From the IMG/VR virus record IMGVR_UViG_2724679172_000006: a DNA stretch of 58,458 bases. One strand, given 5' to 3'. How positions within the stretch are numbered: the stretch's first letter is position 1; every line of letters begins with the position of its first letter. A program made the translations under genes and the position numbers. Shown piece after piece: positions 1 through 1,818 of this stretch. Under the pieces are notes generated by a model that ran no database searches, was not told where the DNA came from, and saw nothing but the letters and a program-made list of their open reading frames with translations. Source of the stretch: a virus (taxonomy: Duplodnaviria; Heunggongvirae; Uroviricota; Caudoviricetes).

Positions 1-221
1 CTTCCCCGGCTTCAACATTGTTGAGCACTTCAGAAAGGTTGCCACGCGCGGTACGGAAGTTAATGGATTGCATAAACACCTCGTGTACTCGTTATGTGTA
101 CACAATTATAAACTTCACAGGCATAAAGCACCAGCACTTTGCAGCTTAAATAACCGGACAATCATCAAATTCCCCACTTCGGGCATCATTGATGACATGA
201 GTGATCACACCAAAAACAGCA

Positions 222-419
222 TTACTGAAACACAAGCAGAGAACCATCAACCGGAGTAAGCGAGGAATCAACCACCAGCAAAGCACCCTGCAATATTCCC
301 TCACGGTGATGGCTATCAGCTGCCCGCATGAAGTAGGTCGCTGAAGGATGTCTAATTATCTGCTGATCAAGAGAAATTCGGCTTTCAACATAATCCGCCG
401 CAGGAGAAGGGAAGCCCAT
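222..419 (-). CDS. humD: UmuD-prime-like SOS mutagenesis accessory protein (HumD-like), apparently truncated
   Basis: Track translation MGFPSPAADYVESRISLDQQIIRHPSATYF.. matches the post-cleavage N-terminus and S24 core of UmuD; LexA box 20 nt upstream; ORF stops early and a C-terminus-like segment (AVFGVITHVINDAR) lies in another frame at about 149-220. Confidence 0.55.
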   Translation of the reverse strand: MGFPSPAADYVESRISLDQQIIRHPSATYFMRAADSHHREGILQGALLVVDSSLTPVDGSLLVFQ

Positions 420-542: not shown

Positions 543-815
543 TTATTTTTTTGGTGCATCCTCGTTCTGATACACCGGATCGCTCCCTTTTGGCAACTGG
601 AGGCTTAACTGCCGGTAGTGCCGTAACCGTTCCATGAAATAGGTGCGCAGATTCTCTGGTTGCTCGCGGGCTACCTGTTCAGCTATGACAGGTATGTTCA
701 ATCGCTCTTTGTACGCCACACCGCTGGCAGCCAGATCAACGTTAACCTTATCCCGTTCTTCCTGACTTTTAGCTGCAATATTCCAATCGTGCATATCAAA
801 TCCCATCCAGAACAA
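543..815 (-). CDS. hot: DNA polymerase III theta subunit homologue (HolE-like)
   Basis: Segment [43 protein letters not shown] resembles E. coli HolE; TTG start in track, a likelier start is the internal MHDWN methionine. Confidence 0.6.
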
Positions 816-1243
816 TTGCGTAACGACTATTATTTAACCAGCAAAGTAACTTTTAATTTTTTTTCTTTTCCCATTGATTTTTGTGCACAGCTTATCTGCC
901 TTGCCGTGCGCAGAATCAACTTTTTTCTTCCTGATTTATCCACAAAGTTATGCACTTGCAAGAGGGCCATTTTCTAAATATTGTGATGTTTCACAAATGA
1001 AATGAATTTTGATTAATGAAGATAAGGAGAAAATTTGAGATGCAATCATGACGTTAATAGATAGGGTCTGCATTACAGACCCCATCCGCATCAAGGAATT
1101 AGCCGTTCCCTGATGTTGTTCCGAAAACATGTGCCGTAAGCTCACGTTAACGACTTTCTTTCACCGAATCCAACTATATAGGGGTTGGGTTTCTACGTCA
1201 ACGTGAGCAAGTGCTCCTTTACATTTGACAAGGAACCACCTTA

Positions 1244-1381
1244 ATGACTGCTTTTTTTCAGTTCCTGAGTGCATTTTTAGATGCGCCTGTTATTAGCCAG
1301 ATTCTGGCGATCATCCTCATCATCGTTTTGATTTTGCTTTTAAGGTCAGTAAAAAATGGAATTATGCACTGGCTTACTTAA
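1244..1381 (+). CDS. small hydrophobic peptide, 45 aa (MTAFFQFLSAFLDAPVISQILAIILIIVLILLLRSVKNGIMHWLT)
   Basis: ATG preceded by AAGGAA at 8 nt; single predicted transmembrane helix; lies in a gap between minus-strand genes; below the track size cut-off. Confidence 0.25.
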   Translation: MTAFFQFLSAFLDAPVISQILAIILIIVLILLLRSVKNGIMHWLT

Positions 1382-1455
1382 TGTTCAGTGAAACATTAAA
1401 ATCTCCTTGATGTGGAAACAATCATTTTCTGTATGTGCTGGTGGGTACCTGTAGT

Positions 1456-1818
1456 TCAGCTTTCGTTGGCATTTAACTTCGTCTTTGCTTTCTCCACCAG
1501 CAACTTCCAGATGCCTATTTCATTAGCAGCCGCCTTGATGGCGGCATAAAAAGCATCTTGCTGATCGTAACGCTGAATCTGTTTTTTCAGTTTTGCCTCC
1601 ACCAATTTAATTTCATTACGTGCTTTCTGAAGCCGCAGCGCCGCCCGGTTACGTCTGTTCTTGTATAGCGCGTTAATCTCTGATAATTGCTTTAATTTAC
1701 CAGCCTGACTGCGGATTATCGCCTCTCTGACTTCTGCCGTGCGTCTCATCTGATCTCTTAAGAGTTCACCGTTTTCGATAATTCTTTCAAGGTGTTTGAT
1801 GTGATCTGCAACTCTCAT
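1456..1818 (-). CDS. hypothetical protein, charged coiled-coil-like
   Basis: ORF track; K/R/E-rich; 4-nt overlap with upstream gene suggests coupling. Confidence 0.5.
   Translation of the reverse strand: MRVADHIKHLERIIENGELLRDQMRRTAEVREAIIRSQAGKLKQLSEINALYKNRRNRAALRLQKARNEIKLVEAKLKKQIQRYDQQDAFYAAIKAAANEIGIWKLLVEKAKTKLNANES

Follow-up and report, generated by a model that had tools for sequence, protein, structure and literature searches.

What does a short, strongly hydrophobic open reading frame (ORF) on the plus strand of a phage-plasmid encode, and how might its expression be controlled? The question is raised by the ORF of 45 amino acids (aa) at positions 1244-1381 of the IMG/VR virus record IMGVR_UViG_2724679172_000006, whose whole stretch of 58,458 nucleotides (nt) was analysed and is called the window below. 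Judged by sequence, the window is that of a P1-like phage-plasmid: its positions 900-1700 share 99.3% identity with phage P1 (NC_005856, 85672-86473, reverse strand) and are 100% identical to many P1-like plasmids of E. coli and Salmonella. We tentatively propose that positions 860-1450 form a self-contained module of P1-like phage-plasmids that resembles a type I toxin-antitoxin pair, a reading that we regard as close to evenly balanced between right and wrong. It is put forward because a peptide gene, a structured leader, a convergent promoter and a predicted antisense RNA lying off the coding sequence together match the layout of the ldr/rdl loci.

Related elements were compared in four classes, namely class 1 (the window and P1), class 2 (P7 and SJ46), class 3 (for example, pYLPM7a) and class 4 (P0009). 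The module comprises the following features:

860-974, plus strand: segment homologous to the E. coli K-12 nrdA upstream region (blastn), on the nrdA strand
936-944, plus strand: DnaA box TTATCCACA in the nrdA-like promoter region
948-956, plus strand: DnaA-like box TTATGCACT in the nrdA-like promoter region
956-984, plus strand: predicted sigma-70 promoter TTGCAA-17-TATTGT (-10 at 979-984), with a start site near 991
933-975, 1021-1066 and 1121-1208: conserved islands in the divergence profile of class 1 vs class 3 (9%, 4.3% and 3.4% divergence, respectively)
1023-1051, plus strand: Shine-Dalgarno-like TAAGGAG (1023-1029) followed by a minimal ORF, in island 1021-1066
about 1165 to about 1055, minus strand: candidate antisense small RNA of ~110 nt, both ends predicted
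1121-1166, 1089-1115 and 1060-1087, minus strand: parts of this RNA, namely its sequence-conserved 5' part, hairpin 2 and hairpin 3, followed by a U-rich tail
1140-1208, no strand assigned: long inverted repeat GCTCACGTTAACG ... CGTCAACGTGAGC, part of the near-invariant island 1121-1208
1201-1173, minus strand: near-consensus sigma-70 promoter TTGACG-17-TATAGT ('PupfN' of P1), with a start site near 1165
1230-1235, plus strand: Shine-Dalgarno (SD) sequence AAGGAA of the 45-aa ORF, its AGGA core ending 9 nt before the ATG
1244-1381, plus strand: coding sequence of the 45-aa hydrophobic helical peptide, with an ATG start and the stop included

The original prediction had described a plus-strand ORF with a ribosome-binding site, encoding a single-helix membrane peptide, and both points are borne out by the AAGGAA at 1230-1235 and by the properties of the peptide itself, MTAFFQFLSAFLDAPVISQILAIILIIVLILLLRSVKNGIMHWLT. 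Its best 19-residue Kyte-Doolittle mean is 3.08 (residues 15-33), the highest value among the 432 ORFs of 30-70 aa that a six-frame reading of the window yields, with all runners-up below 2.78. AlphaFold2 predicts a helix over residues 2-12, a break at D13-A14-P15 and a second helix over residues 15-44, with a mean predicted local distance difference test (pLDDT) score of 88, and the basic residues R34 and K37 stand right behind the hydrophobic helix. The product is thus small (45 aa, below 60 aa) and hydrophobic, and a transmembrane helix is predicted in it. The ORF had also been called unannotated, which is correct for the reference records of P1 (NC_005856) and P7, neither of which carries a plus-strand coding sequence at the locus, but not for RefSeq, where the Prokaryotic Genome Annotation Pipeline already calls the exact ORF as the hypothetical protein WP_000123562.1, nor for phage JL22, in which it is annotated as gp107.

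Comparison among the classes argues that this frame is coding. Identity to the window peptide is 96% in class 2, 60% in class 3 (58% in its variant L007) and ~64% in class 4 (BLASTP), whose peptide is MTEFFQLLNAFLNAPVVSQILAIVFIVVLVWFLKSVRNGGVRWLI. All 45 codons, the start, the stop and an SD are retained in all four classes, so that the frame is conserved in related elements, a property whose absence had been named as speaking against the ORF. The SD reads AAGGAA in classes 1 and 2, GAGGA in class 3, and AAGGAG or AAGGAA in class 4, and it persists even at 1209-1243, where the locus is most diverged (38%). The ratio of non-synonymous to synonymous substitution rates (dN/dS, Nei-Gojobori) is 0.45 for classes 1 vs 3, 0.28 for 1 vs 4, 0.31 for 3 vs 4 and 0.34 for 2 vs 4, with one-sided Fisher p values of 0.053, 0.003, 0.016 and 0.006 in the same order. 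When the observed substitutions were placed at random, the fraction of simulations in which the frame stayed open with a BLOSUM score at least as high as that observed was 0.037, 0.002, 0.008 and 0.002, respectively. Between classes 1 and 3 the ORF carries no insertion or deletion (indel) where 5.8 were expected, compared with 8 in 189 nt of variable flank (P = 0.003). The amino acid changes between classes are conservative (I/V, L/F, R/K, D/N), and residues 4-16 are near-fixed. Because of the low dN/dS and the freedom from indels next to an indel-rich flank, these comparisons indicate that the plus-strand ORF is the real coding gene of the interval and is under purifying selection.

Natural disruptions of the ORF are few, consisting of an IS1 at ~1359, the frameshifted copy in pLKSZ04 and two variants that are fused or out of frame, and at least 80% of the peptide is kept in 228 of 229 plasmids. 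The IS1, at ~1359/1360, removes the last 4-6 codons in several plasmids (NZ_AP026785.1, NZ_CP139854.1 and NZ_CP145648.1; locus L083). The +1 frameshift variant of pLKSZ04 is annotated as the 49-aa protein WP_162883679.1, and the other natural variants are fusions after residue 31 or 37. The DnaA-like 9-mer TTATGCACT recurs within the ORF (1362-1370, codons 40-42); since this copy is not kept in classes 3 and 4, it is probably a coincidence.

The region upstream of the ORF suggests how the gene may be transcribed. A partial match among plasmids could be extended to a plasmid-borne copy of nrdA, and in blastn against the K-12 nrdA upstream region the window has 82.6% identity across 115 nt and class 2 has 94.6% across 130 nt; in classes 3 and 4 the identity is 74-78%. 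The homology itself is already known, as GenBank M95666, a P1 record of 1992, labels window positions 919-974 as an 'nrdA-like promoter' with a dnaA box on the same strand. At positions matching 956-984, the K-12 nrdA upstream region has TTGCAA-17-TATCTT, and an independent scan ranked the 956-984 promoter as the top plus-strand candidate between 880 and 1300. None of the four classes has lost it: the -35 is invariant and the -10 reads TATTGT or TACTGT. The two DnaA boxes lie next to the -35 and are correctly oriented.

The E. coli nrdAB promoter is regulated by DnaA, Fis, IciA and NrdR. The copy at this locus resembles it in having 74-95% identity, across classes, over ~115-130 bp above the -10, and in both DnaA boxes, the -35 TTGCAA, the 17-bp spacer and the orientation to the downstream gene. 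It differs in that the NrdR boxes and the nrdA leader are replaced by unrelated sequence, and in that it precedes a gene for a 45-aa peptide rather than ribonucleotide reductase. True NrdR boxes 1 and 2 sit downstream of the nrdAB -10 (PMC12176259), and they are not retained here because the nrdAB homology stops within the spacer or the -10 region. DnaA activates or represses nrdAB transcription depending on its nucleotide state and level (PMC8203912), and the sequence of the copy suggests that DnaA could control it as well, if it is used as a promoter. Since the 45-aa ORF is the sole conserved plus-strand ORF downstream of the nrdA-like promoter, an mRNA with a leader of ~250 nt is implied. 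At the plus-strand promoter, LexA and CRP sites were looked for by eye and were rejected: nothing more than partial half-sites is present, and these vary from class to class.

In about 38 other plasmids the similarity is confined to the nrdA-like promoter and is lost beyond it, as in NZ_CP028430.1 (pRM9131-1, 1493-2060; L090). Plasmids of this type carry a strong bidirectional terminator (AAAAAGCCCAG...CTGGGCTTTTT) and, ~300 bp beyond it, a 27-aa amphipathic ORF, MVNLLFKIVPPMFAIIKAIIEYVNQRP, equipped with an SD and a terminator of its own. The 27-aa ORF has no family match and may be a different small-peptide cassette at the same locus.

The gap holding the ORF had been described as empty, which proved wrong: the divergence profile of class 1 vs class 3 reveals three conserved non-coding islands within DNA that is otherwise 20-38% diverged, and island 1121-1208 differs by 1.1% between classes 1 and 2. 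The long inverted repeat in this island encloses an 8-bp hairpin (1167-1174 with 1184-1191) and forms the dominant hairpin of the predicted plus-strand leader. Further upstream, the mini-ORF behind TAAGGAG reads ATG CAA TCA TGA in classes 1 and 2, ATG TAA in class 3 and GTG TAA in class 4, and the whole element at 1023-1051 could serve ribosome loading or standby in the leader. Long-range pairing of the SD block at 1023-1029 with the initiation region of the ORF was considered and dropped, as it is no better than in shuffled sequences (p = 0.3-0.8). Two other plus-strand frames were rejected as coding: in the 21-aa ORF from the ATG at 1048 almost all changes are non-synonymous and the start is lost in class 4, and the 25-aa ORF at 1129-1206 shows 4 non-synonymous vs 1 synonymous changes.

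Within island 1121-1208 lies the convergent promoter, which is conserved, sits upstream of the ORF and reads away from it. It matches the consensus at 10 of 12 positions, had the top score in the promoter scan, and its TTGACG-17-TATAGT is invariant in 22 of 22 haplotypes and in all four classes. The RNA predicted from it would fold into a single-stranded 5' end and three hairpins, with a minimum free energy of -43.8 kcal/mol (z = -5.85; 0 of 200 shuffles as good). Among seven haplotypes, which represent few independent lineages, compensatory changes affect two pairs of hairpin 3 (G-C to A-U and U-A to C-G), and four further changes in it are one-sided and compatible; in hairpin 2 the loop varies and the stem is kept. 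The two helices are 97.5% paired as minus-strand RNA vs 80.1% as plus-strand RNA, a strand specificity that arises because several pairs are G-U. In class 4 the tail after hairpin 3 (UAUCUUUU) is the better one as a terminator. Class 2 elements keep the module although they are without hot and without any annotated minus-strand gene downstream, so the RNA is not simply a leader of hot. An Rfam cmscan of positions 700-1900 at E <= 10 gave only chance-level matches and none to rdlD; the best score on the relevant stretch was 15 bits for BsrG, compared with a gathering score of 55.

As a check on the toxin idea, a search for an antisense RNA overlapping the ORF had been suggested. A conserved candidate does exist at the locus, but it lies off the coding region, opposite the presumed 5' leader: provided that the mRNA starts at the nrdA-like promoter, the RNA would be complementary to ~110 nt of the leader, 78-190 nt above the ATG. 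An antisense RNA over the ORF itself was rejected, since the P1upfM and P2upfM promoters, which the P1 annotators had predicted inside or behind the ORF, are not conserved, with the -10 (1366-1361) changing from ATTATG to GGCGTG in classes 3 and 4.

From these elements a type I-like mechanism can be sketched. In it the two transcripts with their ends, the translation and toxicity of the peptide, its repression through the RNA and the control by DnaA are all inferred from sequence. The nrdAB-promoter copy with its two DnaA boxes would start a plus-strand mRNA near 991, made up of a structured leader of ~250 nt and the message for the 45-aa peptide, which would comprise a short helix, a proline kink, a transmembrane helix and the basic residues just after it. 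The convergent promoter in the leader would yield the structured minus-strand RNA of ~110 nt, fully complementary to the leader, and by pairing with the leader, possibly helped by interference from convergent transcription, this RNA would keep the membrane peptide off. A DnaA-responsive promoter would couple expression of the peptide to the replication status of the host. In lytic growth, transcripts of the C1-controlled pmgT-U-V operon (operator Op88) would presumably cross the ORF in antisense. A stricter version, in which P1-family phage-plasmids have captured the nrdAB promoter of the host and the level of a membrane-active peptide is set by the balance of DnaA-ATP and DnaA-ADP against a threshold imposed by a constitutive antisense RNA, is a speculative extension that we consider improbable. 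If true, such gating would add an input that has not been described so far in the regulation of type I systems, it would tie the maintenance of the prophage-plasmid, dormancy under stress or abortive exclusion to the replication status of the host, and it would give a function to the nrdA-like promoter, an orphan in P1 since 1992.

The resemblance to type I toxin peptides noted in the original prediction is real in size, in the single hydrophobic helix and in the R34 and K37 that follow it. Among known systems, the ldr/rdl loci of K-12 are similar in their small peptide starting with MT (35 aa in Ldr, 45 aa here), in a D..AP[VI][IL]..I[LI] motif at the start of the transmembrane helix, in basic residues after the helix (at the C-terminus of Ldr, R34 and K37 here) and in an antisense RNA lying upstream, opposite the 5' leader; Rdl starts 48-49 nt from the ldr ATG and reads away from it, and the predicted RNA here would start ~78 nt away. 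They differ in the length of the RNA (64-68 nt vs ~110 nt here) and in that the present locus is single-copy, borne by a phage-plasmid and equipped with an nrdAB-type promoter. The similarity to LdrD itself (APVI..ILA) is weak, with a BLASTP alignment of 15 residues at E = 0.001 in a single comparison and a shuffle p of 0.009-0.026 for one of nine toxins tried, so that Ldr homology is a lead only.

The tisB/istR-1, dinQ/agrB and zorO/orzO systems each combine a hydrophobic single-helix peptide with a long structured leader and an upstream small RNA gene reading away; tisB and dinQ, moreover, couple the expression of their toxins to DNA-related stress through LexA. The module shares with them the type of peptide and, as predicted, the leader and an upstream RNA gene that reads away from the peptide gene, but its control region is nrdAB-like with DnaA boxes and has no LexA box; compared with sequences of TisB, DinQ and ZorO, the peptide shows no similarity (shuffle p > 0.1). 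With hok/sok, pndA and srnB it has in common the location on plasmids or prophages, a small membrane peptide, a convergent antisense promoter and a short upstream leader frame (mok in hok, the start-stop mini-ORF here). Unlike Sok, which overlaps the mok/hok initiation region, the conserved candidate antisense RNA here would keep to the leader, 78-190 nt above the ATG, and neither a match to the Hok family nor a 5'-3' fold-back element was identified.

Several observations weigh against the type I-like reading. Membership in the Ldr family is not supported, as PF13940 and the Rfam rdlD model are unmatched and the hhalign probability is 7%. For the RNA, in classes 1-3 the U-rich tail after hairpin 3 (UAUCUAUU) is poor as a terminator, class 4 does not keep the structure of hairpin 1 and has one pair of hairpin 2 broken, and the covariation comes from seven haplotypes of few independent lineages. 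Pairing in trans of the 5' end of the RNA with the start-codon region is significant in class 1 only (-19 kcal/mol, p = 0.02; p = 0.26-0.56 in the other classes). On the mRNA side, plus-strand hairpin 2 followed by UUGUU/UUUUU might terminate the leader before the ORF, and the codon-position bias of the ORF is weak between classes 1 and 3 (11, 8 and 12 substitutions at positions 1, 2 and 3). Our literature searches found no description of the gene or of the RNA, and the data are explained almost as well by a small membrane protein that is not toxic and has an antisense regulator.

Such a protein, a genuine small membrane protein accessory to the host-mimic replication and repair genes (hot, humD and lxr), whose level is tuned by the antisense RNA, is in our view rather unlikely as a whole, though it deserves serious weight. 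It might, for example, modulate a membrane protein of the host or act in exclusion, and bacteria have many small membrane proteins that are not toxins. All evidence for a real gene applies to it equally, the peptide resembles no toxin family, ~97% or more of the carriers have the gene intact, and the nrdAB-type promoter suggests regulated, physiological expression (PMC8203912). What speaks for a toxin instead is that an invariant convergent antisense promoter together with a long structured leader is a hallmark of type I systems and uncommon in genes for ordinary small proteins, and that the peptide evolves fast in everything save its hydrophobic character (58-60% identity), as type I toxins do.

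The two remaining explanations separate the RNA from the peptide or remove the peptide altogether. That the minus-strand RNA has nothing to do with the ORF, being either the leader at the 5' end of a longer minus-strand RNA that runs towards hot or a small RNA acting in trans on host or phage targets, with the ORF expressed and regulated on its own, seems unlikely to us. It would agree with the P1 annotators' assignment of the promoter to downstream minus-strand ORFs ('PupfN'), with the weak terminator in classes 1-3 and with a 5' end of 45 nt conserved in sequence and not in structure, like the seed regions of trans-acting small RNAs; yet upfN is not conserved, class 2 keeps the module without hot or an annotated minus-strand gene downstream, the module is passed on as one unit in four classes whose right-hand neighbours differ, and, if the nrdA-like promoter fires, the two RNAs overlap by ~110 nt of necessity. 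We consider it very improbable that the ORF is an untranslated chance frame in a T-rich spacer, with the islands acting only as DNA- or RNA-level elements. Its nucleotide divergence (22.5%) does fall within the 20-38% of the variable flanks, classes 1 vs 3 taken alone are marginal (p of ~0.04-0.05) and homologues outside P1-like elements are lacking, but inclusion of class 4 lowers dN/dS to 0.28-0.34 (p = 0.003-0.016; simulation P = 0.002-0.008), and neither zero indels against 5.8 expected, nor the start, stop and SD kept in all classes, nor a hydrophobicity unequalled among 432 ORFs is what a chance frame would predict. The type I-like module thus stays our tentative choice; the toxin idea is plausible and unproven, and the ORF that the original prediction pointed out is confirmed.

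The region occurs in 229 PLSDB plasmids (from Escherichia, Salmonella and Shigella), in 54 IMG/VR contigs, in 19 metagenome contigs and in 216 of 5426 complete E. coli genomes, with 222 of 223 places on plasmids. Word-indexed searches with the peptide and its profile found no homologues beyond P1-like elements, and the same elements alone were matched by an exhaustive phmmer search against 1.84 billion representatives, by degenerate-pattern scans of GTDB genomes, IMG/VR and metagenomes, and by tblastn against plasmids at E <= 10. The DNA pattern of the inverted repeat gave five chance matches in GTDB genomes, in unrelated phyla. In Pfam, NCBIfam, PHROGs and PADLOC the peptide has no significant match, in agreement with the earlier statement that it resembles no named family; the best sub-significant matches are phrog_1184, of unknown function (E = 0.056), and Pfam ASFV_J13L (E = 0.25-0.33), and PADLOC gives nothing for class 1 and a non-significant CARF_TM (E = 0.11) for class 3. 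PF13940 (Ldr_toxin) did not match the peptides of classes 1-3 at E <= 10, while LdrD, used as a positive control, matched it at 6.5e-27. Profile searches likewise placed the peptide in neither Hok/Gef nor any other named toxin or defence family.

P1 is among the most used and best annotated phages, and P1-like phage-plasmids, frequent carriers of resistance genes, are found in ~4% of complete E. coli genomes. If our reading is correct, the P1 reference annotation is wrong here, with upfM and upfN likely spurious and a real gene on the opposite strand missing, the nrdA-like promoter recorded in 1992 gains a gene, and P1 has a second addiction- or stress-type module beside phd/doc. Should the peptide be non-toxic, it would still be a small, conserved membrane protein whose control, derived from the host, is unusual.

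Locally, the order is phd, humD, LexA box, hot, gap and pmgV. The neighbouring features, together with the ORFs that the P1 reference places in the gap, are:

438-457: LexA box TACTGTTTATTCATACAGTA, 787 bp from the ATG of the 45-aa ORF
543-815, minus strand: hot, flanking the gap that holds the 45-aa ORF
830-970, minus strand: upfO (P1 annotation)
948-1145, minus strand: upfN (P1 annotation)
1161-1274, minus strand: upfM (P1 annotation)
1456-1818, minus strand: pmgV, the other flank of the gap

As had been stated, the surroundings are on the minus strand, both hot and pmgV being so oriented. The distance of about 800 bp given for the SOS box is also right, but its relevance is not: the box serves humD, hot sits between, and it is unrelated to the 45-aa ORF. 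The upf frames look spurious on the sequence evidence, with those of upfM and upfN broken by indels in class 3 and upfO a mere translation of the nrdA-upstream homology, in DNA that K-12 annotates as ypaB. The upfM frame, which covers the antisense promoter and the start of the 45-aa ORF, is listed as non-essential for P1 plaque formation (PMC9024508); this is compatible with every model and uninformative either way.

For the mRNA of the 45-aa ORF, no convincing intrinsic terminator was found within the window. Downstream, a second 45-aa ORF (1412-1549, plus strand, GTG start, METIIFCMCWWVPVVQLSLAFNFVFAFSTS...) runs antisense over the 3' end of pmgV; it is retained in class 2 and is probably not a gene, because the region is replaced in classes 3 and 4. 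On the other side of the gap, humD (30-419, minus strand), which encodes a UmuD-like S24 peptidase, has an internal deletion of ~117 bp relative to other P1-like plasmids, with the break at ~227, and its frame ends after '...GSLLVFQ'. It is probably a pseudogene in this element, since the frame stops at 65 aa rather than 129. The LexA-regulated lxr, which lies between humD and hot in P1, is missing at 420-542, as in many class 1 plasmids, and the LexA box at 438-457 is kept despite its loss.

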